NCBI GenBank assembly: GCA_027024255.1
Contig: JALVSQ010000021.1
Span: forward strand, 1 to 39,183
Source: Candidatus Micrarchaeota archaeon
GTDB lineage: Archaea > Micrarchaeota > Micrarchaeia > Anstonellales > J096
Direction: 5' to 3'
DNA: 39,183 nucleotides
Shown here in pieces: positions 7,500 to 39,183 of this stretch (position 1 is the stretch's first letter; each line of letters begins with the position of its first letter). Under the pieces are notes generated by a model. It saw only the letters and a program-made list of their open reading frames with translations, was not told the origin of the DNA and searched no databases. Made by a program: the position numbers and the translations under genes.

Positions 7500-7559
7500 C
7501 TTATTTATTTTACATTGAAGTGTTTTTAAAGAATTATGGTGTTTGAAAGCCTGCTGGAG

Positions 7560-7589
7560 TGTCAGGTAATTCCTTAAAAGAATTTTTCA
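7560..7589. repeat. Dispersed palindromic intergenic element, copy A
   Basis: TGTCAGGTAATTCCTTAAAAGAATTTTTCA matches the reverse complement of 33068-33097 at 28/30. Confidence 0.75.
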
Positions 7590-7623
7590 AGTTTATTAGC
7601 CCCCTATCTCTAACAATTACCAA

Positions 7624-8896: not shown

Positions 8897-10168
8897 CTAT
8901 TCTCTGCTGAATAATGACCACTTCCACACAGGCTTTACAGTTATTCTTTTCCCCTGCATTTCTACTTCATCTTCCTGGTCATAAGTTAAGATCAAACCTT
9001 CATCTAAGTTAAAGTAATCCATAGCCTCCAACAGACCCTTTATTTCTCTGTCCTTATTTTGCCTGCTCAACTCATAAGTCACCTGAACTGCTTTTGTAAC
9101 GCGCTGAGAGCCATGTTCCTTTACAATAAAGTCGCATTCTCTACCTGCTTTATAGAAGTTCAGGTCGTCACCATATCTCCTCAATAATTCAATTAAAACT
9201 AGATTTTCAAGTAGATGGCCTTTATTCAGTTTGTCTGGTTGTACAAAGTACTTTATGTAAGCATTATCTATTATATATATTTTCTTTGGACTCCTCAAAG
9301 ACTTCTTTGGAGAGTGTGAGAACGGTTCTAATGAGAACAATAAGAAACTCTGCTCACCGTAAAACACATACTTTTTAACAGTGTGTATATCTATTTTTTG
9401 CTGGATAGCATTCATAATGCTGTTGTATGTGTATGTTCTACCTGCATTTCTTATAAGATAAATTAACACCTCTTTCAGAAGAGGAATGTTTTTTACATGC
9501 CATCTGGCAGCAATATCTTTGTAAACTATGTCCTCAAAGTAAGTGCTTATATAAGCTGTGGTGTTTGATTTGACAAGCTCAGGAAAACCTCCATTTATCA
9601 GAAAATTGCTGAATTCTTTTTTTATTTTCCCTTTAATATCAAATCTATAAGCTTTTTTGAAGTCTATCTTTTTATAGGTAAGGTACTCTTTGAAGGAGAA
9701 AGGATATAAAGTGAAGTCAGTATGCCTTCCTGTTAAGTATGTGGTTATCTCTTTACTCAATAATGTTGAGTTTGAGCCTGTGATTATTACCTTATAACCC
9801 ATTTTTATCAATCTATTCAGGAACATATTCCAGTTGGGTTTATTCTGGACTTCATCAAATAAGATAAGCTCAAAATCAGAGCCATCCATGCTGAATACTT
9901 CAAGAATTAAGTCGTATTGGTCTGGCTTGAGATAAACCAGCCGTTCATCGCTGAAATCAAGGTACCTGAACCTGTGGTTTTGAGCAATCTGTCTGAGAAC
10001 GGTACTTTTTCCCACTCTTCTGTGACCGGTAATTACGCAGATTTTTTGCAAAGGACTTTTTAACTCATTTTCTATTTTTTTGTTTATCTCTCTTGTTACT
10101 CCATGTTCCTGTTTAATGAAAAAATCCCTTTGTTCCAGGTATATGTGCCTTAACTCATTAATCTGCAT
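8897..10168 (-). CDS. COG1373-type AAA_14 ATPase with DUF4143 C-terminal domain
   Basis: Walker A GHRRVGKST, LFDEVQ, ITGSNS, LTGR, GGFPE, PKKIYIID, LLENLV, ECDFIV..AVQV. Start ATG 10168 follows TTTATAAA. Confidence 0.9.
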   Translation of the reverse strand: MQINELRHIYLEQRDFFIKQEHGVTREINKKIENELKSPLQKICVITGHRRVGKSTVLRQIAQNHRFRYLDFSDERLVYLKPDQYDLILEVFSMDGSDFELILFDEVQNKPNWNMFLNRLIKMGYKVIITGSNSTLLSKEITTYLTGRHTDFTLYPFSFKEYLTYKKIDFKKAYRFDIKGKIKKEFSNFLINGGFPELVKSNTTAYISTYFEDIVYKDIAARWHVKNIPLLKEVLIYLIRNAGRTYTYNSIMNAIQQKIDIHTVKKYVFYGEQSFLLFSLEPFSHSPKKSLRSPKKIYIIDNAYIKYFVQPDKLNKGHLLENLVLIELLRRYGDDLNFYKAGRECDFIVKEHGSQRVTKAVQVTYELSRQNKDREIKGLLEAMDYFNLDEGLILTYDQEDEVEMQGKRITVKPVWKWSLFSRE

Positions 10169-10211
10169 AAATAATATTGTGCCTTTAATCTTTATAAACC
10201 TATTACTTTTA

Positions 10212-10295
10212 TGAAGTCCAAGCACATAAAAAATGCCTTATATTTGAAGTACATGCACATAAAAAAGAGCTTTTATATGGAATTTGCACACAAAC
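10212..10295. repeat. Degenerate tandem repeat (GCACA cores at 10222, 10255, 10286) between ATPase and gatD
   Basis: TGAAGTCCAAGCACATAAAAAATGCCTTATATT vs TGAAGTACATGCACATAAAAAAGAGCTTTTATAT, then partial GCACACAAA. Confidence 0.8.
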
Positions 10296-13276: not shown

Positions 13277-13321
13277 TATTTCCACACGGAAAAATTTTCC
13301 CAGCATTTTATTTCCACACGG
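13277..13321. repeat. 45-bp direct repeat copy 1 (two TTTCCACACGG cores 32 bp apart)
   Basis: TATTTCCACACGGAAAAATTTTCCCAGCATTTTATTTCCACACGG, identical to 13415-13459. Confidence 0.95.
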
Positions 13322-13414
13322 AAATAAAATTGCAGTCCTTTGAACTAATAAATCAGGGACATCATGATTATCTACTGAAAAAATCATGATAATATAATAA
13401 AAACATAGAAAAAA

Positions 13415-13459
13415 TATTTCCACACGGAAAAATTTTCCCAGCATTTTATTTCCACACGG
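13415..13459. repeat. 45-bp direct repeat copy 2, just upstream of ATPase TATA box
   Basis: Identical to 13277-13321; followed by TTTTTAAAA and ATG 13493. Confidence 0.95.
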
Positions 13460-13492
13460 GAAAATTTTTAAAAGTTTCACATAATTAGCTAT

Positions 13493-14689
13493 ATGATGGA
13501 CGAGGACATGTTTACAAATGTTGTATCCTATTCACAAAAAATGATAAACAGCAATCTTGTTTCAAAACTCAGGCCTTTATCAATGGAAATAGTAAAAATG
13601 ATTCAAAATCAAAGCATTATAACAGCCATAAAGGGGTTAAGAGGTGTGGGCAAATCCTCTCTCCTCATATACTTTCTTTATCATCAAAAAGATAGCATTT
13701 ACATAAATGCTGAATATCTTCTTAAGCAAGGGCTTTCTCTGTATGAAGTGCTTGACTATGCTTATTCTCAGGGTTACAGGGTTTTCGGTATTGATGAAAT
13801 CCATGTTTTGAAAAACTGGCCTCTTGATGTAAAGCTCTTTTATGACCAAACCAGAGCAAAGATTGTGCTGACAGGTTCTTCAGCAATCTCTTTGCATATA
13901 ACCAGCTCTGAATTATCAAGAAGGGTTGTGTCAGTGGATTTAAAGCCGTTTTCGTTCAGGGAGTTTATATACTTTAAGACAGGCGTTTTACTTGAGAAAA
14001 GAACATTGAAAGAAATTTTAGAGAATAAAAAAGAGATAGCAAGGGAAATTGCTCCATTTGTAAGTATTTACAATGAGTTTCTGGAGTATTATGCTCTCCC
14101 TGCTGCTTTTTTTGAGAGTAAGGATGTTTATCCTGGCATAATAGAGAAGATAGTATATCATGATTTGATTTCATTGAAGAGCATTGATTTCAGTTATGTG
14201 GATGCTGCTTTTAAGACATTAAGATTTCTTGTTTCTTCAAAACCAGGGGAAATAAGTTATAATTCTCTGGCAAGTTCTCTGGGCAAATCTGTAAAGTTTT
14301 CAATCAGTCTGATTAATCTTTTAGCAAATGCAGGCATTCTTAATATAATCAATGCCCATGGAAGAGGGCATAAACCAATCAGAAGCGGGGTTAAAATCTC
14401 ATTACCTTTATCGTTCAGAAGCGCACTTGCCAGATACTTTAATACCGAAGTAGAAAAAGGAGCATTGAGAGAAGATTTTTTTATTCACCATGTTGGAAAC
14501 GCTTTTTATGTAAAGGAGATGGGTAGAAGATCTCCTGATTACTGGGTTGATGGTTATGTGTTTGAAATAGGTGGTCCTTCAAAGGGCAAAAGCCAGTTGG
14601 AAAGGTCTGAGAGAGGATTCCTGGTTAAGGAATCTTTATCAACCATGTCAAACGATGTGCCTATTTATCTGTTTGGTTTACTTTATTGA
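13493..14689 (+). CDS. AAA_14/COG1373-type ATPase with C-terminal nuclease-like motif
   Basis: GLRGVGKSS, IDEIH, LTGSSA, LSRR, GALREDFF, PDY..FEIGGPSK; paralog of 37463..38695. Confidence 0.88.
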   Translation: MMDEDMFTNVVSYSQKMINSNLVSKLRPLSMEIVKMIQNQSIITAIKGLRGVGKSSLLIYFLYHQKDSIYINAEYLLKQGLSLYEVLDYAYSQGYRVFGIDEIHVLKNWPLDVKLFYDQTRAKIVLTGSSAISLHITSSELSRRVVSVDLKPFSFREFIYFKTGVLLEKRTLKEILENKKEIAREIAPFVSIYNEFLEYYALPAAFFESKDVYPGIIEKIVYHDLISLKSIDFSYVDAAFKTLRFLVSSKPGEISYNSLASSLGKSVKFSISLINLLANAGILNIINAHGRGHKPIRSGVKISLPLSFRSALARYFNTEVEKGALREDFFIHHVGNAFYVKEMGRRSPDYWVDGYVFEIGGPSKGKSQLERSERGFLVKESLSTMSNDVPIYLFGLLY

Positions 14690-25647: not shown

Positions 25648-26730
25648 ATGGGCATTCTTGAGAAGATAAAAGAGATAGAGGAGGAGATAAGAAAAACGCA
25701 GTACAACAAAGCCACAGAAAAACATATAGGCATACTAAAAGCAAAGCTGGCAAAGTTGAGAAGAGCTTTGCTTTCATCGAAAAAAGGAGGAGGCCATGGC
25801 TTTAGCATTTCTAAATCAGGTGATGCCACAGTTGCCTTAATCGGCTTTCCTTCTGTTGGAAAATCAACACTATTGGCAAAGCTTACAAATGCCGAAACAA
25901 AGGCAGCAGGCTATGCTTTCACAACATTATCAGTTGTTCCGGGCATGTTGCTGTACAAGAAGGCAAGAATACAGATACTTGATTTACCAGGCATTATAGA
26001 AGGAGCAGCGTACGGTAAAGGAAGGGGTAAAGAGGTTATAAGTGTGGCAAGGAATGCGGATTTGCTTTTAATCCTGCTTGAGCCTTTTAATGCAGAGAAG
26101 CACTTTAAAGCGATAATGAAGGAATTAAAGGCAATGGCCATAAGGCACGGAAAAAGGCCTGAAATATATGTAGAAAGAAAGCATAAAGGAGGCATTGCTT
26201 TATTCTACTCAAAACATTTGAGTGTTGATGAGGAGTTGGTTAAATCGATATTGAATGAGTATGGTATTCACAATGCCAATGTTATAATAAGAGAGGAGGT
26301 AACGCCTGAAAAACTCATAGATGTCCTTGAAAATAACAGGGTTTACATTCCTTACATTGTTGCTATAAACAAAATAGATATGTGTGATGAAGAATTGCTT
26401 AACAAGCTCAGGTTAAAGTTTAAAGATGTCGTATTCATTTCAGCAGAAAAGGGCATTGGCATTGAAGAATTGAAGGAAGCAATATTCAATTCCCTGAATT
26501 TTATAAGGGTTTATACAAAGCCTCTTGGCGGAGAACCTGATCTGGATGAGCCGATGATGTTGAGGAGAGGAGCAACGATAAGAGAGGTTTGCTTAAAACT
26601 CCACAGGGATTTGCTCAAAAACTTCAAATATGCTCTCGTATGGGGGAAAAGCGCTAAATTTCCCGGGCAGAGGGTAGGGCTTGACCATAAACTTGAAGAT
26701 GAGGATATAGTTACCATTGTATCAAGATAA
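25648..26730 (+). CDS. DRG/OBG-family GTPase with TGS domain
   Basis: TQYNKATEKHIG, GFPSVGKST, YAFTT, DLPGIIEGA, NKID, VWGKSAKFPGQRVG. Confidence 0.96.
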   Translation: MGILEKIKEIEEEIRKTQYNKATEKHIGILKAKLAKLRRALLSSKKGGGHGFSISKSGDATVALIGFPSVGKSTLLAKLTNAETKAAGYAFTTLSVVPGMLLYKKARIQILDLPGIIEGAAYGKGRGKEVISVARNADLLLILLEPFNAEKHFKAIMKELKAMAIRHGKRPEIYVERKHKGGIALFYSKHLSVDEELVKSILNEYGIHNANVIIREEVTPEKLIDVLENNRVYIPYIVAINKIDMCDEELLNKLRLKFKDVVFISAEKGIGIEELKEAIFNSLNFIRVYTKPLGGEPDLDEPMMLRRGATIREVCLKLHRDLLKNFKYALVWGKSAKFPGQRVGLDHKLEDEDIVTIVSR

Positions 26731-26782
26731 CAATTTTCACCTCTTTCACAAATTTCACCTTTGCAATTTTCACCTGTTTCAC
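26727..26782 (+). repeat. 56-bp direct repeat, left copy (five TTTCAC units)
   Basis: 53/56 identical to 27938-27993; starts at the DRG stop codon. Confidence 0.95.
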
Positions 26783-26819
26783 CCAAAAGTTTTTAAAATC
26801 TGGGTTTCAAATACCAAGC

Positions 26820-27941
26820 ATGAAAGAACTTAAAGAGTATGTTAAAGCCCTTGAAGATAGACCACTAACATTTGAAGATGAGGATTTATTTGTAGATAGA
26901 GAAATAGAGCTAAAAAAGATGGCAGAGCTTGATTATTACTTTGAAGGAAAGATAATAGGTGTGTGCGGCCAGAGGGGCATAGGAAAAACAACTCTCTTCA
27001 ACTTTTCAAGGTTCCCTGGAAAAAATAAACTTATAATAAAAATTATAGACAGGGAAAATAAACTCTCCATCATATCCAACATAATTGGTGAGATAATTAC
27101 ATATTCAAAAACAAAGGGCTATAATGAGATTGAAAAAATGGGTAAGAAACTCTTCACAAAAATTCATGTATCAAAAAAAGAGGCTGTGGGCATATCCTAT
27201 ATAATTGAATATAAGCAAACAAAGGAGGAAAAAATATCACTCTTTAACTTCTTGAAGTCGTTTAAGAAATTCATGGATTTGTTGAGTAAAAAGGAAAGGC
27301 TCGTGATAGTACTTGATGAAATAGATAAGCAGAAGGTGGATGAGATTCTCCTTCTTGTGGATGCTATAAAAGATGCATTTGTATCAAACTCCATCACTCT
27401 GTTTGTTGCCTTGCCTTATGAATTTTACGAAAACTTTATATCATCAAAGACGAGTTCAACAGAAACTCACAACCTTGAGAATGTATTCAGTTATATGTTC
27501 CTTCTGGAACCTTTTTCAGATGACGATGTGAAGAGAATAATCTCAAGAAGATTTCCTTTAAGTCTTATTGAGGAAGAGGCATTGAATAAGATTGTTGAGT
27601 TTGCTGATGGAAATCCAAGAAAGGCAATAACAACGCTTAAAGAGGCAGGCATAATTGCAGAGGGAAAGATAAGGCTAAGTGATGTAAAAGGAGTTATATC
27701 AAGGTACATAAGAACTTGGATAAAATCAACTAAGTTAACTCAAAATGAACTGAATGTTTTCAGATTAATTGAAGATGGTAGAGTTGCAGATATAACTCAA
27801 GGAGTATCTAAAAAACTCAGAAAATCAAGGTCTGTGGTATACAAGTACTTAAAGAAGTTTGAGGAAGCAGGGCTTTTAAATCTGGAAGGTAAAAATGCTG
27901 AGCTGAGCAGGATGGGCAGGCTTGTAAAGGAAGTGATATAA
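26820..27941 (+). CDS. Archaeal AAA+/STAND-like ATPase with C-terminal winged HTH
   Basis: FVDREIEL, GQRGIGKTT, IVLDEIDK, GNPRKAI, C-terminal KSRSVVYKYLKKFEEAGLL. Confidence 0.85.
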   Translation: MKELKEYVKALEDRPLTFEDEDLFVDREIELKKMAELDYYFEGKIIGVCGQRGIGKTTLFNFSRFPGKNKLIIKIIDRENKLSIISNIIGEIITYSKTKGYNEIEKMGKKLFTKIHVSKKEAVGISYIIEYKQTKEEKISLFNFLKSFKKFMDLLSKKERLVIVLDEIDKQKVDEILLLVDAIKDAFVSNSITLFVALPYEFYENFISSKTSSTETHNLENVFSYMFLLEPFSDDDVKRIISRRFPLSLIEEEALNKIVEFADGNPRKAITTLKEAGIIAEGKIRLSDVKGVISRYIRTWIKSTKLTQNELNVFRLIEDGRVADITQGVSKKLRKSRSVVYKYLKKFEEAGLLNLEGKNAELSRMGRLVKEVI

Positions 27942-27993
27942 CAGTTTTCACCTCTTTCACAAATTTCACCTTTACAATTTTCACCTCTTTCAC
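27938..27993 (+). repeat. 56-bp direct repeat, right copy
   Basis: ATAACAGTTTTCACCTCTTTCACAAATTTCACCTTTACAATTTTCACCTCTTTCAC; starts at the ATPase stop codon. Confidence 0.95.
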
Positions 27994-31398: not shown

Positions 31399-31551
31399 TT
31401 ATACCACCCCAAAATAACGGATTTTTTGTCAATACTTATGGTAAAAACATTTAAAAATATTGCTTTGCCTTTTGGGCTTTTTGGTCTGTCAGATAGTAAT
31501 TCAGTAAAGAAAACTCCAGCCTCTCTTATTTTTAACCTGCTATTAACTTTC

Positions 31552-32979
31552 TTATTCTTTCTCTAACTTCAGGGTTTTTTCTGCTAATTGTTCAAGTGCT
31601 GTTTCAGATGCTTCTTTAACATCATAATCCTCGTATTTATCCTTTAACCTTTCCATAAGAGCATTAATGATCTTCCTATTTGCTACCCCTAATTTTCCTA
31701 AAGCCTTAGCAGCTGTTTCTTTAACATACCATTCTTCATTTTTGTCTTTTAACCTCTCTACAAGAGCATTAACAACTTCTTTATTTGCTACTCCTAATTT
31801 TCCTAAAGCCTTAGCAGCTGCTTTTCTAACACTTGGGTGTTCACTTTCATCATTCAACCTTTCTACAAGAGCATCAATAACCTTTTCACTCGCACCACCT
31901 AATTCTCCTAAAGCCAAACATACTCCAGCTCTTTCTTTCCAATCTGTGCTGTTAATATCAGGTAAAATTCTCTCAACAATTTCTTCCTCCATTTTGTTCT
32001 TTTTAGCTATTTTACCAAGGGCTTCAGCAGCTGCTTTTCTAACACTTGGGTGTTCACTTTCATCATTCAACCTTTCTACAAGAGCATTAATAACTTCCTC
32101 ACTTGGAACTCCTAATTCTCCTAAAGCCAGACATACTCCATGTCTTTCTTTCCACTCTGTGCTGTTAATACCGGGTAAAATTCTTTCAACAATTTCGTTT
32201 TCAATGTTATTCTTCTTAGCTGTTTTACCAAGAGCTTCGACAACTGCTTCTCTAACATCTTCATCCTCATCTTTCAGCCTCCCTACAAGAGCATTAATAA
32301 CCTTTTTATTTGCAACCTCCAGTTTACCTAAAGCCTCAGCAACTGCTTTTTTAACATCCCATTTTTCGTTCTCATCCTTCAACCTCTTTACAAGTACTTT
32401 AATGAGCTTCTCGTTTTCTTCCACTGACTTAACCAATGCTTTAATAACTGTTTTTATAACCTTTCGGAATTTACCTTCCTTTTTAAGTTTATCTGTCGTA
32501 GATTTGGTTTCTTTTCTTGCAGCCCCTAATTTGCCAAGGGCTTCAGCAGCTTCTTTTCTAACCCTTGTGTATTCCCTTTTATCATTCAACCTCTCTACAA
32601 GAGCATTAATAACCTTCTTACTTTTTACTCCCAGATCACCCAGGGCAGCACAGGCTTCCATCCTTTCCTCCCAATCCTCACTATTAATCTTAACCAAAAG
32701 AGTTTCTATTACTTTATTGACCAGTTCCTTGGTTACTTCCTCTCCGAACCTTTCCTTTATCTCTTCAATAGTCTTTTTATCAGGGATTCCTTCCTTAAAC
32801 TCTTCAAGCAATCTTTTAACCACCTCTTCTTTGTATTTATGGACCTGAGAAGGAGCTATAAGTCTTACTAACTTTTCATCAGGAATTCCTTTTCCTTCCA
32901 TTAACTTATTAAGTAAATTGGCCTCTCTTCTTTTAGCTTCTTCTATATTCTCCTTCACCCTTTCCTTGAATTTTCTCAT
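31552..32979 (-). CDS. HEAT (PBS-lyase-type) repeat protein
   Basis: Repeated VINALVERL.D....VRKAAAEALGKLG units; 213-bp internal DNA duplication (31813 vs 32026). Confidence 0.92.
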   Translation of the reverse strand: MRKFKERVKENIEEAKRREANLLNKLMEGKGIPDEKLVRLIAPSQVHKYKEEVVKRLLEEFKEGIPDKKTIEEIKERFGEEVTKELVNKVIETLLVKINSEDWEERMEACAALGDLGVKSKKVINALVERLNDKREYTRVRKEAAEALGKLGAARKETKSTTDKLKKEGKFRKVIKTVIKALVKSVEENEKLIKVLVKRLKDENEKWDVKKAVAEALGKLEVANKKVINALVGRLKDEDEDVREAVVEALGKTAKKNNIENEIVERILPGINSTEWKERHGVCLALGELGVPSEEVINALVERLNDESEHPSVRKAAAEALGKIAKKNKMEEEIVERILPDINSTDWKERAGVCLALGELGGASEKVIDALVERLNDESEHPSVRKAAAKALGKLGVANKEVVNALVERLKDKNEEWYVKETAAKALGKLGVANRKIINALMERLKDKYEDYDVKEASETALEQLAEKTLKLEKE

Positions 32980-33067
32980 TATGTTAATTATTGTGTAGGA
33001 AAATGTTTAAAAAACTTAGATGGATTATTTCTCAGGAGTTCTGGACAGAGCAGAAGTTAAATCAATC

Positions 33068-33097
33068 TGAAAAATTCTTTTAAAGAATTACCGGACA
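33068..33097. repeat. Dispersed palindromic intergenic element, copy B
   Basis: Contains perfect inverted repeat AATTCTTT-T-AAAGAATT; reverse complement is 28/30 identical to 7560-7589. Confidence 0.75.
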
Positions 33098-33140
33098 GAC
33101 CAGGCTTTTCTTTATAAACATATCCTCTGCTTACCATTTT

Positions 33141-35438: not shown

Positions 35439-35537
35439 AACTTATGCTTAACAAACAACATTTAAAAAAATTCCTGAGGCAGTGTGTTTTGCTTTTTGGA
35501 GTAATTTCTCTTCATTTTTAACCTGCTATTAACTTTC

Positions 35538-36352
35538 TTATTCTTTCTCTAACTTCAGGGTTTTTTCTGCTAATTGTTCAAGTGCTGTTTCAGATGCTTC
35601 TTTAACATCATAATCCTCGTATTTGTCCTTTAACCTTTCCATAAGAGCATTAATGACTTCTTCATTTGCTACTCCCAATTCTCCCTGCGTATTTTAACTA
35701 AAGCCTCAGCAACTGCTTTTTTAACATCCCATTTTTCGTTCTCATCTTTTAACCTCCCTATAAGAGCATCCATTACTTCTTTACTTGCAATTCCTAATTC
35801 TCCTAAAGCCAGACATACTTCATATCTTTCTTCCGGGTTTCTGCTGTTAATACCGGGTAAAATTCTTTCAACAATTTCTTCCTCCATTTTGTTCTTTTTA
35901 GCTATTTTACCCAGGGCTTCAGCAACTGCTTTTTTAACATACGGCAATTCGCTCCCATCTTTCAACCTTTCTAAAAGAGCATTAATAACCTTCTTACTTT
36001 TTACTCCCAGATCACCCAGGGCAGCACAGGCTTCCATCCTTTCCTCCCAGTCCTCACTATTAATCTTAACCAAAAGAGTTTCTATTACTTTATTGACCAG
36101 TTCCTTGGTTACTTCCTCTCCGAACCTTTCCTTTATCTCTTCAATAGTCTTTTTATCAGGGATTCCTTCCTTAAACTCTTCAAGCAATCTTTTAACCACC
36201 TCTTCTTTGTATTTATGGACCTGAGAAGGAGCTATAAGTCTTACCAACTTTTCATCAGGAATTCCATCTTCCATTAACTTCTTAAATAAATTAGCCTCTC
36301 TTCTTTTGGCTTCTTCTATATTCTCCTTCACTATTTTCATCAATTTTCTCAT
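35538..36352 (-). pseudogene. Frameshifted, internally deleted paralog of HEAT gene 31552..32979
   Basis: ORF stops at 35669, but the paralog's C-terminus (NALMERLKDKYEDYDV...LEKE*) continues in another frame to TAA at 35538-35540. A 14-nt junction at 35685-35698 shifts the frame. A 227-aa product may still be made. Confidence 0.8.
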
Positions 36353-36464
36353 TATGTTAATTATTGTGGAATGAAATGTTTAAAAAACTTAGATGGAATT
36401 ATCCTGAATGATTATCTGGAAAGCACCTGTTTTAAATAATCTTTGTTGAGTTAAATACAAAACC

Positions 36465-37409
36465 ATGAATGTTATGCTTATTGCTGAGGGCAACGGTTAT
36501 GGTCATGCTTCCAGGCTTTCTTTATTGGCTACTTACTTCAAGGAGCCTATAATTACATTCTACAAAGGCGTTGAGTTTTGTAAAAAAGAGGGCATTCCAT
36601 ACATTGATATTGGCACGCCTTACTACATTGATGATGAAAATGTTGCCTTAAAGTTAAACATAAATGGTATGAAAAGATGGTTCAAGCCCCTTTTGCTCAA
36701 AAATCTTGTGGATATGGCTAAGGAAAAGGATGTAATTATAGGGGATACATCTCTTTTAGCATTGGTAATCGGCAAGATAGCAAAGAAGCCAGTCATAGGT
36801 ATTTTCAGCGATGTTTACAGCAATACATTTATCCCTTCATTTATAAATCCAATAAGCAAGAAGACTATTGCAGCAGTCCTGAATATGTTTGATTCTCTCC
36901 TCATTCCTGATTTTCCACCACCTTATTCAATTTCCTCCTTAAACCTTCAATTAAAAAAAGCAAGGTTCATAGGACCTATGGTTAAGCCCATCAGGCAGGT
37001 AAAGCATAACATTCCATTAGTTGTTTCAGCAGGGGGCAACGGCATTGAGGTTAAGAGGATTAAAGACCTTGGTTTAAGGTTTATTTCTCAATACGATGTT
37101 AAAAACATAAGGCAGTATTACAAGCATGCAAAGGGTATTTTGACCCATGGTGGCCACACAACAATAATGGAAGGCATTTACTATGCTAAACCACTTTTGT
37201 TTTTTGTTAATAAAAAGTACAAAGAAAGGCTCAACAACTCTGTGAAGGCAGAATCCTTAGGCATTGGAAGGATTGTTTCCTTAGAGAGTTTACCCATGGC
37301 CATTGATGAGATTGATTTTATGAAAAAGAGGGTTTTGTGGTTTTCCAAATGGGCAAGAAGGTTTAATCCTGTAAAAGATGTTGAAGATGAAATAAGTAAA
37401 TTTGTTTAA
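36465..37409 (+). CDS. GT-B glycosyltransferase (MJ1255/GT28-like)
   Basis: GNGYGHASR, IPDFPPPYSIS, FIGP, THGGHTTIMEG..KP. Confidence 0.85.
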   Translation: MNVMLIAEGNGYGHASRLSLLATYFKEPIITFYKGVEFCKKEGIPYIDIGTPYYIDDENVALKLNINGMKRWFKPLLLKNLVDMAKEKDVIIGDTSLLALVIGKIAKKPVIGIFSDVYSNTFIPSFINPISKKTIAAVLNMFDSLLIPDFPPPYSISSLNLQLKKARFIGPMVKPIRQVKHNIPLVVSAGGNGIEVKRIKDLGLRFISQYDVKNIRQYYKHAKGILTHGGHTTIMEGIYYAKPLLFFVNKKYKERLNNSVKAESLGIGRIVSLESLPMAIDEIDFMKKRVLWFSKWARRFNPVKDVEDEISKFV

Positions 37410-37413
37410 TTGT

Positions 37414-37461
37414 CCATTTTTCTGGACAAAAATTTCAATTTTTGTAAATTTTTCTGGACAA
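37414..37461. repeat. 48-bp direct repeat, copy adjacent to ATPase stop codon
   Basis: CCATTTTTCTGGACAAAAATTTCAATTTTTGTAAATTTTTCTGGACAA, identical to 38732-38779. Confidence 0.96.
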
Positions 37462-37462
37462 G

Positions 37463-38695
37463 CTATACAAGGCAGGCAAGGTATAAGGGTAAGGTGACCA
37501 CATTACCTTCTATACTTATCTCTTCTCCTTCTTTTAAAAGAAAGCCCTTTCTTATCTGGCTTTTTGTTTTTGACGGGCCTCCTATTTCAAGGTCAAGGAA
37601 CGCATTGCCTGCCCTTATCTTATAATCAGGCTGTTTTTTTCCATGATTGTAGAAAAGAGGTATTTTTTTGTAATAAAAAGAGGAGACAACTGCATCTTCT
37701 CTGAGGCCACCTATGTTTTCTCTGAGATAAAGGTTAAGTGTTAAGCTGTGCCTTAATAAAGGAGATGAAAACAAAAACTTTCTTTCTTTCCTTAACGAAG
37801 CAGATGAAGGGGGATATGGCAACACAGATATAAGAAAGGAGGATGTTTCAAGAGCATTTAAGATGTTCAACACAGTCGTTCTTGATGTTCCTGCTATTTC
37901 TGCAAACCTCTGGAGCGATATCTTTTCAGGTGGGGAAAGGGCTATTGTTTCAACTATCTTTCTTGCTTTTTCACCTGCATCTATGTTGAAGCCTCCTATG
38001 TAGGGGAAATCAAATGTTACTATCTGGGAGAGGAGGCTGTAAGCAACATCCCTGACATTCATCCCGAATGCAAGGGGAAATCCATGGGTGAGGTATTCCC
38101 TGAATTCGTAGCTTAAACTCCTTAACCTTAATAAATAATCTTTTGCCTTTGTGTATGCATCCTTTGGCATAGATGAAAATATGTCAATTGCAGATTCATT
38201 TACATGTATGCCTTTCTTTATTCTCAGATATTCCCTGAAGGTAAGAGGAGGCAGTTCATAGAATACGGCCCTTCTTGCCATTGCAGAACCTTTGAGCCTT
38301 ATCTTTATGGCTGAGGATCCCGTTGCTATTATTTTAAGCTTGAAGTTATCATATATTATTTTAAGCTTTTTATCCCATTCGCTAATGTCTGTTAGCTCAT
38401 CTATGTAAAGTGTTCGGAGGTTGGTGTGCTTTATGTAGTCTTTAACAACCTTCACAATGTCCAGTTTGTAATAAGATAGACTCGACCCGTCTATGAACAT
38501 GCCGTCTCTTTCAGCCATTGCCTGATTCAATGAAACAGATTTTCCTATACCTCTTAATCCGTAATATATGAAAGCAAGTTCTCCTTTTTCATTTTTGAGC
38601 CTTTCAACAATATCTCTTTGTTTGTACTTTTTAGCATCTTCTTTTCTTTCCTCTTTCTTTTCTTCCATGAACCTTATGAATTCAAAAACGTCCAT
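37463..38695 (-). CDS. AAA_14/COG1373-type ATPase with HTH and nuclease-like C-terminus
   Basis: GLRGIGKS, IDEL, ATGSSA, GFP, HTH LQRFAEIAGTSRTTV, GGLRED, PDY..LEIGGPSK. Confidence 0.88.
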   Translation of the reverse strand: MDVFEFIRFMEEKKEERKEDAKKYKQRDIVERLKNEKGELAFIYYGLRGIGKSVSLNQAMAERDGMFIDGSSLSYYKLDIVKVVKDYIKHTNLRTLYIDELTDISEWDKKLKIIYDNFKLKIIATGSSAIKIRLKGSAMARRAVFYELPPLTFREYLRIKKGIHVNESAIDIFSSMPKDAYTKAKDYLLRLRSLSYEFREYLTHGFPLAFGMNVRDVAYSLLSQIVTFDFPYIGGFNIDAGEKARKIVETIALSPPEKISLQRFAEIAGTSRTTVLNILNALETSSFLISVLPYPPSSASLRKERKFLFSSPLLRHSLTLNLYLRENIGGLREDAVVSSFYYKKIPLFYNHGKKQPDYKIRAGNAFLDLEIGGPSKTKSQIRKGFLLKEGEEISIEGNVVTLPLYLACLV

Positions 38696-38731
38696 TGTAA
38701 GTCTTTTTAATAAAATACTTTAAAAATATTG

Positions 38732-38779
38732 CCATTTTTCTGGACAAAAATTTCAATTTTTGTAAATTTTTCTGGACAA
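38732..38779. repeat. 48-bp direct repeat, copy upstream of ATPase TATA box
   Basis: Identical to 37414-37461; CTGGACAA cores 32 bp apart. Confidence 0.96.
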
Positions 38780-38815
38780 ATAAAATAATAAATAAAGAAA
38801 AAAGAGAGTTTAGAT

Positions 38816-39183
38816 TTACTGTCTCTGTAAAGCAGATATGAACTGCTGTGCTGCTGAGACTGTGTCTTCTGCTGTCCAACCTGCAACAACGATCTTGCCA
38901 CCAACTTCCTTGACAACCACTGGGTTCTCTGGACTTAACTCAACATCGCTGCCTTCAAGTGCTGCTGCTGTAACACTGTTTACAGCAGGACCACCGACTG
39001 TTACGACTGTACCTGTGTCTGGAGCCTGTGAATCAAGGACAACTAAGTCACTTACTGTACCTGATGGAACTGCTGCCTGGAATGTTGTGTATGTCTGCGA
39101 ACCATCGCTTATAACTGCTGAAACTCCGCTCATGTCAGCAGTTGTTCCTCCTTCTGCTGATGCAGTGCATGATGCTGTTGCCT
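38816..39183 (-). CDS. S-layer protein, C-terminal part (start lies beyond window)
   Basis: VTVGGPAVNSVT and KIVVAGWTAEDT..AA motifs typical of archaeal S-layer C-termini; A/S/T/V rich; frame is open to the window edge. Confidence 0.8.
   Translation of the reverse strand, partial: ATASCTASAEGGTTADMSGVSAVISDGSQTYTTFQAAVPSGTVSDLVVLDSQAPDTGTVVTVGGPAVNSVTAAALEGSDVELSPENPVVVKEVGGKIVVAGWTAEDTVSAAQQFISALQRQ

Follow-up and report, generated by a model that had tools for sequence, protein, structure and literature searches.

Paired dyad sites at both ends of an archaeal AAA+ ATPase-nuclease gene are probable operators for the encoded protein

Near the end of contig JALVSQ010000021.1 of a Candidatus Micrarchaeota archaeon (GenBank assembly GCA_027024255.1), a single gene for an AAA_14-type ATPase with a predicted nuclease domain lies between two identical 48-nucleotide (nt) direct repeats. 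Do such repeats record an insertion, form the ends of a mobile unit, or serve as sites read by the encoded protein itself? The stretch analysed, called the window throughout, is the whole 39,183-nt sequence from position 1 to position 39,183 of this contig. The two copies of the 48-mer (CCATTTTTCTGGACAAAAATTTCAATTTTTGTAAATTTTTCTGGACAA; Table 1) are 100% identical and start 1318 nt apart, and by arithmetic an exact pair of this length is not expected by chance in 39 kb. A preliminary description, made from the letters of the window alone, had reported this pair, the 1-bp distance of one copy from the stop codon and the contact of the other with a TATA box; repeat search and coordinates agree with it on each point. 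On balance, we favour the explanation that the 48-mers are cognate operator arrays for the winged helix of the ATPase, which would serve autoregulation, probably by looping, in a module that is gained and lost as a whole.

Each 48-mer is associated with two 20-bp dyads, TTGTCCA-N6-TGGACAA, that begin 32 nt from each other, giving four sites in total. The extension of the left copy to the perfect dyad TTGTCCA-TTTTTC-TGGACAA, also described earlier, was found as reported. Read along the gene, the second, 3′ pair begins 1 and 33 nt past the ATPase stop codon, while on the promoter side the gene strand from 38731 to 38718 (caatatttttaaag) adjoins the right 48-mer and contains a TATA-like box, assigned by eye. 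The position of this box suggests a leaderless or near-leaderless ATPase transcript, and, judged from general archaeal promoter architecture, dyad 2 would overlap the expected position of the transcription factor B recognition element (BRE). A search of the entire assembly (874,647 bases in 52 contigs, up to three mismatches) returned two copies of the 48-mer, both at the ATPase gene, and none for the backwards control. The core 14-mer TTGTCCAGAAAAAT occurs four times genome-wide, every time at this gene. The motif is thus private to the ATPase gene, and the refuting case named in the preliminary description, a widely dispersed regulator site, is excluded. Among 185,579 species genomes, the exact 20-mer was found at six loci, comprising two Micrarchaeota records (one duplicating locus L004, which carries an ortholog) and four bacterial single matches, about the number expected by chance. 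A looser dyad search of the genome at up to three mismatches gave 61 places vs. 27–47 in five shuffles and was discarded.

The sites follow the protein rather than the place. The closest homologs, from other families of the order, are encoded in the genomes G022, G040, and G035 (48–52% identity); a further ortholog, in G170 (46%), was found via the motif. All four orthologs keep TTGTCCA-N6-TGGACAA with four sites each. Counted from the ATG, the proximal pair begins at −84/−52, −83/−51, −84/−52, and −85/−53 in G022, G040, G035, and G170, respectively, so the geometry is conserved to the base. The second pair is located at the stop codon in G040 and G170, and at −167/−135 in G022 and G035. Neighbouring genes differ from genome to genome, with truB, UDG, an amino-acid kinase, a polyprenyl synthase, and an unknown gene beside the orthologs; here, as first described, the unit separates an S-layer gene from a glycosyltransferase gene. 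The UDG gene adjoins the ortholog in G035 (locus L006) and is one gene away in G170 (locus L098).

The cysteinyl-tRNA synthetase (CysRS) of this genome shares 40–51% identity with those of the ortholog genomes, which indicates that the module is old and that its non-coding sites have been kept over the whole divergence. Of the two causes first proposed for the perfect identity of the repeats, selection is therefore supported by the dyads retained in orthologs, while recent duplication is unneeded because the module is old. Co-variation with the protein lineage extends to the family: repeats share an 8-mer in 25 of 26 gene pairs at 45% or more protein identity, vs. 308 of 877 other pairs, with medians of 15 and 0 shared 8-mers, respectively.

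An empty site was recovered for one ortholog. In G040, where the ortholog is flanked by truB and a tRNA gene, a ~1.43-kb insert that carries it interrupts the 3′ end of truB at CACATG^. CATG is present at both junctions, the last ~12 truB codons are displaced to the far side, and the insert extends 24 and 12 nt beyond the two dyad pairs. The congener G026 has truB, 18 nt, and then tRNA-Ser, and no dyads were found at this empty site in the alignment with G040. Therefore, both pairs came with the gene and are not target duplications, and the pair-TATA-gene-pair arrangement is the unit gained or lost. Turnover of the DUF4143 family is very fast: among genomes of this one genus, 93–95% complete, G026 encodes no DUF4143 genes at E 1e-8 or better, G034 encodes 31, and G040 encodes six. 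Three further candidates for an empty site were rejected. Locus L006 vs. genome G027 gave a DNA match only to the upstream region of another module; loci L013 and L025 are alike in one flank (88% identity) and differ by a 1-kb indel with two open reading frames (ORFs) right past the stop codon, which gave no clean answer; and five congeners carry other genes at the position of L098, a variable spot rather than an empty site. Between the inserted module and tRNA-Ser in G040 lie two 115-nt tandem units (locus L005, 2851–3148), each of which opens with ~10 nt like the 5′ end of this tRNA and contains two GC-rich dyads, CTGGTCGA-CATT-TCGACCAG and TTTCGTCGG-CGTT-CCGACGAAA. These units could be another site array or an att-like remnant.

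The encoded protein has a plausible reader for such sites. AAA_14 (PF13173) matches with E 7.3e-18 and 65.3 bits (cut-off 27), DUF4143 (PF13635) reaches 19.3 bits, under its cut-off of 28.1, and the PADLOC PDC-S01 profile PDLC04787 matches residues 18–358 with E 3.9e-20. By sequence, the protein belongs to a divergent branch of COG1373/PDC-S01. In 45 sequences, Walker A residues G46, G51, and K52, Walker B residues D99 and E100, as well as E333 and D357, are invariant, and E370 is present in at least 90%. An AlphaFold model built on 45 homologs (predicted local distance difference test score 93.2, predicted template modelling (TM) score 0.92) comprises an AAA+ core (residues 1–160), a helical lid (170–235), a winged helix (~239–310), and an alpha/beta domain (312–410). 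In the model, this last domain, with its E333/D357/E370 pattern, fits a PD-(D/E)XK assignment of DUF4143. PMC3424549 lists DUF4143 among PD-(D/E)XK families, with its function given as ‘unknown’. Foldseek matched the model to RuvB, Orc1/Cdc6 on origin DNA, DnaA, CED-4/Apaf-1, and the archaeal ATPases 2qen and 2fna (E ~1e-6); for 2qby and 2v1u (E ~2–3e-06), TM-scores of ~0.3 denote a likeness at the level of architecture only. Within the orthogroup, the winged helix is the best-conserved domain (61% vs. 47–53% for the others), and its third helix, S-(R/K)-T-T-x-x-N-I-L-N-A, is nearly fixed, while across the whole family the winged helix shares 23% identity only.

The layout of paired sites around a gene is a property of this protein family, although not a universal one. 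This genome encodes at least 22 genes of the AAA_14/ATPase_2 kind (19 via phmmer and three recognised later). When 757 of the 803 called ORFs were screened for an exact word common to the 5′ flank and the 3′ end, 15 shared a word of at least 19 nt, and all 15 encode AAA_14/ATPase_2 ATPases; the next-best words, of 15–16 nt, occur in unrelated genes. Two of the 15 belong to a tandem array on contig C26, where the common word is coding sequence of the neighbouring paralog. Three are short forms (333–347 aa) that end in an MCM_C-type winged helix and lack a nuclease domain. Since nuclease-less forms (333–373 aa) show the same layout, DNA binding, not cleavage, is the common denominator.

Among 58 homologs in 17 related genomes, 30 have a promoter pair and a stop-codon pair (two of them doubtful), each with a sequence of its own; approximately six, plus L004 by eye, have both pairs upstream, and approximately 19 lack pairs. 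For 42 clean flanking cases, which also include the units of this genome and L098, the repeat has a median length of 54 nt and 97% identity, and ten pairs are perfect. Two related 12-mers (at least 10/12 matching) 28–36 nt apart were identified in 29 of 40 flanking units vs. 32 of 800 shuffles, the best direct spacing being 32 nt in 19 of 27 cases, and a perfect 6+6 dyad is present in 26 of 40 units vs. 166 of 800 shuffles. Most of the 52 repeat-bearing genes have a proximal copy that ends 25–38 nt before the ATG with a TATA-like word directly after it, and in most cases the 3′ copy begins within about 30 nt of the stop codon. In at least eight of 44 flanking cases, the duplicated unit extends through the TATA-like word towards the ATG, which suggests head-to-tail units as the origin of the layout.

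In 176 genomes of the order, no solo dyad pair was found; the clusters checked, including all multi-site clusters, adjoin a family gene. Single TTGTCC...GGACAA matches in genomes G153 and G163 were rejected as sites and belong to other hairpin arrays. These arrays (loci L100–L102) consist of consecutive hairpins ATTGTxx...xxACAAT, often split by ATATGCA-like words, at several loci that are not beside AAA_14 genes, and share the TTGTCC/GGACAA arms by chance or by descent.

Specific sites at the promoter of the gene that co-vary with its product, as is characteristic of an autoregulated DNA-binding protein, are observed here; the binding itself is putative and predicted from sequence. Most likely, winged-helix dimers of the encoded AAA+ ATPase-nuclease would bind each 20-bp dyad, the dimer being suggested by the palindromes. 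Two dimers 32 nt apart, or about three helical turns, would lie on the same face of the helix and occupy the BRE/TATA edge, and occupancy of the promoter pair would control the transcription of the gene, most likely to keep a potentially harmful nuclease under negative autoregulation. The stop-codon pair would cooperate with the promoter pair through the oligomerising ATPase to form a ~1.3-kb loop around the gene; in forms with both pairs upstream, the loop would span a 50-nt gap. Protein bound at the 3′ end could, in addition, form a roadblock to the convergent neighbour. The two copies would be homogenised through gene conversion or through unequal crossing-over of the direct repeats, and the same process would have the tandem arrays of family genes (contig C26 and locus L052) as its other product.

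Several observations weigh against these operators being the full explanation. The 12-nt spacer between dyads is the same in both 48-mers and varies among orthologs, so a homogenising process must be assumed, because selection on the sites alone is insufficient. Of the 3′ neighbours that could be scored, 27 of 41 are convergent and 14 are co-directional, which indicates that the distal pair does not, as a rule, serve the next gene as a promoter element. Of 31 family ORFs sampled at the highest-ranking DUF4143 matches in the class, 24 are without such repeats, and the sites are thus not required for the core activity of the family. The placement of TATA boxes and start codons rests on inspection by eye and on a simple ORF rule. 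Lastly, the clean indel and the range from 0 (G026) to 31 (G034) copies in one genus are cassette-like, and the pairs may have a role in movement.

Independent support for the locus was sought in Logan contigs from four runs (X1–X4), which can miss rare forms; runs with this sequence carry a hydrothermal vent metagenome label. The preliminary description had made its case depend on both repeat copies being real. The left 48-mer is bridged whole in two other samples, by X2 record 12 (37310–37514, no differences) and X4 record 28 (37394–37579), while full bridging of the right 48-mer was not found among the contig pieces listed. X1 contigs break within both copies, the usual behaviour of a de Bruijn graph at a repeat of 48 nt. 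Near the outer edge of the module, a short X4 contig departs from the window sequence at 38790 with 33 unmatched letters, and a 610-nt X3 contig starts matching at the same position and has 218 unmatched letters. The unmatched end of the X4 contig fits the end of an ORF on contig C46 of the same genome (2323–2759), which in this assembly runs directly into a CRISPR array with the repeat GTTTCAATACTATATAGTACGTCTAAAAC. This divergence may be a strain rearrangement at the module edge.

The best-surviving alternative, which we regard as possible but rather doubtful, is a mobile one-gene cassette, in which the pairs would be ends bound by their own ATPase-nuclease for excision and insertion, and regulation would be a by-product. 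It would account for the clean ~1.43-kb insert in the truB 3′ end of G040 with CATG at both junctions, for DNA homology of related modules that stops at the pairs or the stop codon, and for the 0–31 copies within one genus. Some gene pairs are also more alike than the CysRS proteins of the same genomes (78.6% vs. 66%, and 71% vs. 48%), the nuclease residues are invariant, and contigs from X4 and X3 diverge 10 nt beyond the right 48-mer. However, the genome contains no near-identical family genes, the closest non-tandem paralogs being 48.5% identical, the 48-mer has only two copies, and the orthologs of the window gene have diverged like a housekeeping gene. The orthologs at L004 and L006, with both pairs upstream, show nothing 3′ of the gene and still retain all four sites in fixed positions, and nuclease-less members have the same layout. 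The repeats are direct, not inverted, no solo pair occurs among the checked dyad clusters, and no joint skipping 37462–38779 and no circle closure was found in the Logan contigs of the four runs, where rare forms can be missed. A bolder version, which we hold slightly more tentatively still, envisages self-bracketing one-gene elements whose private four-dyad address would shut the promoter, mark the ends, and let the protein assemble over the locus so as to excise, copy, or re-insert the unit. If true, such elements would be a recombinase-less class of mobile gene.

Known mobile elements offer partial parallels. The features by which a transposon or insertion sequence is recognised were not found: the unit has one ORF and direct repeats, the 48-mer occurs twice, and non-tandem paralogs are at most 48.5% identical; CATG (4 nt) at both junctions of the G040 insert is ambiguous in this respect. 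Insertions with long target duplications share with the module one defence-type gene within direct repeats of tens of bases and no recombinase of its own. In such insertions, however, the repeat is host sequence of which one copy remains in the empty site, whereas the empty site of the ortholog has none and the window repeat follows the gene between neighbourhoods.

We consider it improbable that the locus is an initiator-and-site module of the Orc1/Cdc6 kind, in which the pairs would serve to load the AAA+ protein, or to titrate it, in DNA transactions of the replication or partition type instead of in transcription. The fold matches Orc1/Cdc6-DNA complexes and DnaA, and the product of a second module in the window (gene 26820–27941; Table 1) has a weak match to the Orc1/Cdc6 profile TIGR02928 (E 2.7e-07). 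By analogy, the nearest working system would be an initiator of the Orc1/Cdc6 type whose private recognition boxes adjoin its own gene. According to PMC3936714, origins of Haloarcula hispanica depend on the co-located cdc6 gene, and cdc6E is likewise flanked by its own sites, with a region downstream rich in origin-recognition boxes that restrains oriC2, probably by titration. What is shared is architecture only, an AAA+ core, a lid, and a winged helix with sites beside the gene. Membership by sequence is lacking, since the window protein has no match to the NCBIfam Orc1/Cdc6 profile and the 26820 protein reaches 29.8 bits vs. a cut-off of 181.3. The pairs here are direct, with 12-nt spacers between dyads, and are not inverted around an AT-rich unwinding element, which the module lacks; a nuclease domain is attached; and at least 22 modules in a 0.87-Mb genome are implausible as origins. 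The proximal site abuts the TATA box in most genes, which points to promoter control.

A long target-site duplication, by which the 48-mer would be the original intergenic sequence copied at gene insertion, is very unlikely. The repeats do bracket a single gene between convergent neighbours, and the 56-mer repeat of the second module has its outer limits at two stop codons, beginning at that of the upstream GTPase gene and ending at that of the convergent DUF134 gene. Against this, the orthologs, in five different neighbourhoods, share the dyads and their distances from the ATG, the G026 empty site of the ortholog has no repeat copy, the repeats are internally ordered with a spacing of 32 nt, and they co-vary with the protein lineage. 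For the orthogroup of the window gene, this explanation is already contradicted. Equally slight is the chance of a neutral leftover or artefact, in which the 3′ copy would be the decaying promoter region left by a vanished tandem duplicate, or a product of misassembly. Family genes do form tandem arrays (C26, L052), and at least eight of the 44 flanking units run through the TATA-like word as a tandem origin would give, but a median identity of 97% across 42 modules whose protein divergence shows them to be old, the start of the 3′ copy within ~30 nt of most stop codons, the bridging of the left copy in two other samples, and the same layout in independent assemblies all speak against it.

The operator explanation has its closest functional parallel in looping repressors, such as lambda CI at OL/OR and the controller proteins of restriction-modification systems. 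By analogy, the module would share with them paired dyad operators at the promoter, a distant second cluster, and autoregulation of a potentially harmful gene. Here, by contrast, the DNA reader is fused to an AAA+ ATPase and nuclease, the second cluster is at the stop codon of the gene itself, and looping is putative. Within its own family of AAA_14 and DUF4143 proteins (COG1373; PDC-S01), the window protein is alike in the AAA_14 domain, the PDC-S01 match, and the PD-(D/E)XK-like C-terminus, and differs in its DUF4143 score under the Pfam cut-off. Genes for COG1373/DUF4143 ATPases rank among the most common uncharacterised ones in bacteria and archaea, and their only listing is as a defence candidate; we take PDC-S01 to be a candidate system for phage defence and nothing firmer. 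In these reduced genomes, they account for ~2–3% of all genes. No cognate or flanking sites were found in the literature on DUF4143, COG1373, and PF13173 or on direct repeats at Micrarchaeota AAA genes, supplements being outside the search. A predicted DNA ligand for each protein would be the first concrete molecular handle on the family. More than 40 natural protein-site pairs, with 32-nt spacing and a fixed TATA position, make function directly testable and form a natural data set on how a winged helix selects its DNA sequence. In addition, flanking repeats that are not always target duplications change models of how one-gene cassettes move.

Table 1 Coordinates of the ATPase-nuclease module, its neighbours, and two further modules in the window
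Feature	Coordinates	Strand	Basis and remarks
ATPase-nuclease gene, 410 aa	37463..38695	−	ORF call; Pfam AAA_14
Left (3′-end) 48-mer copy	37414..37461	+	Repeat search; ends 1 nt from the ATPase stop codon 37463–37465
Right (promoter-side) 48-mer copy	38732..38779	+	Repeat search; 36 nt to the ATG, opening with the TATA-like word
TATA-like box atatttttaa	38719..38728	− (gene strand)	By eye; ~29 nt upstream of the ATG at 38695
Dyad 1	38760..38779		2 mismatches; starts at −84 from the ATG
Dyad 2, promoter-proximal	38728..38747		3 mismatches; starts at −52 from the ATG
Dyad 3, inner of the 3′ pair	37442..37461		2 mismatches to consensus; offset from dyad 4 by 32 nt, start to start; separated from the ATPase stop codon by 1 nt
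Dyad 4, outermost of the 3′ pair	37410..37429		Perfect palindrome TTGTCCATTTTTCTGGACAA, 0 mismatches; directly after the glycosyltransferase stop codon
Convergent neighbour, glycosyltransferase	36465..37409	+	Glyco_tran_28_C, 31.6 bits, cut-off 22; outside the module
Upstream neighbour, 3′ part of S-layer-like gene cut by the contig end	38816..39181	−	S_layer_C, 22.8 bits, just below cut-off 23.9; outside the module
Second module	26727..27993	+	56-mers 26727–26782 and 27938–27993, 53/56 positions match (95%), around gene 26820–27941
Third module, both pairs upstream	13277..14689	+	Four TTTCC-ACAC-GGAAA dyads at −216/−184/−78/−46 of AAA_14 gene 13493–14689

The preliminary description had likened the locus to the second module of the window and had taken the two protein families to be different. 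The parallel holds, with the 56-mers at 95% identity and units of the TTTTCACCT type 33 nt apart within them. The families do not differ in a deep sense, since both proteins are AAA+ ATPases with a winged helix and match overlapping Pfam families. The 26820–27941 protein has a C-terminal winged helix-turn-helix that resembles Csa3/CasR (Csa3-like, E 6.8e-07) and lacks a nuclease domain; relatives were found in three of 41 genomes, this genome included. In the third module, the four TATTTCCACACGGAAA dyads at 13277–13462 form two 48-mers 138 nt apart, with dyads 32 nt apart in each. These dyads presumably resemble mini origin-recognition boxes, yet they fit the module type with both pairs upstream. 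A homolog 59% identical to the 13493–14689 product (locus L026, genome G002) has TTTCCAAATGGAAA in the flanking layout.

The four modules in the window sit amid housekeeping genes and not in a defence island; the window also encodes a thermosome and a DRG GTPase. A comparison of S-layer and glycosyltransferase synteny, proposed in the preliminary description, met relatives too distant for it: homologs of the glycosyltransferase occur in nine of 18 genomes of the family at 26–35% identity, and in none of these nine do they lie beside an S-layer fragment or an AAA_14 gene. A metagenome scan with the glycosyltransferase protein gave 415 pattern matches, none of which was confirmed.

Other repeats were recorded elsewhere in the window. 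A tandem pair of 33-nt units at 10212–10277 lies just upstream of a canonical PDC-S01 paralog (8897–10225, PADLOC E 1e-99), and a second copy of these units was not seen at the 3′ end of this gene. An inverted repeat of 44 nt, 84% complementary, has arms 25 kb apart (7554–7597 and 33060–33103). Two HEAT-repeat genes (31552–32979 and 35669–36352) flank glycosyltransferase genes and share segments (31528–33024 and 35514–36397) with 81–94% DNA identity, 3.4 kb apart, and the contigs of several runs show many joints and variants there.

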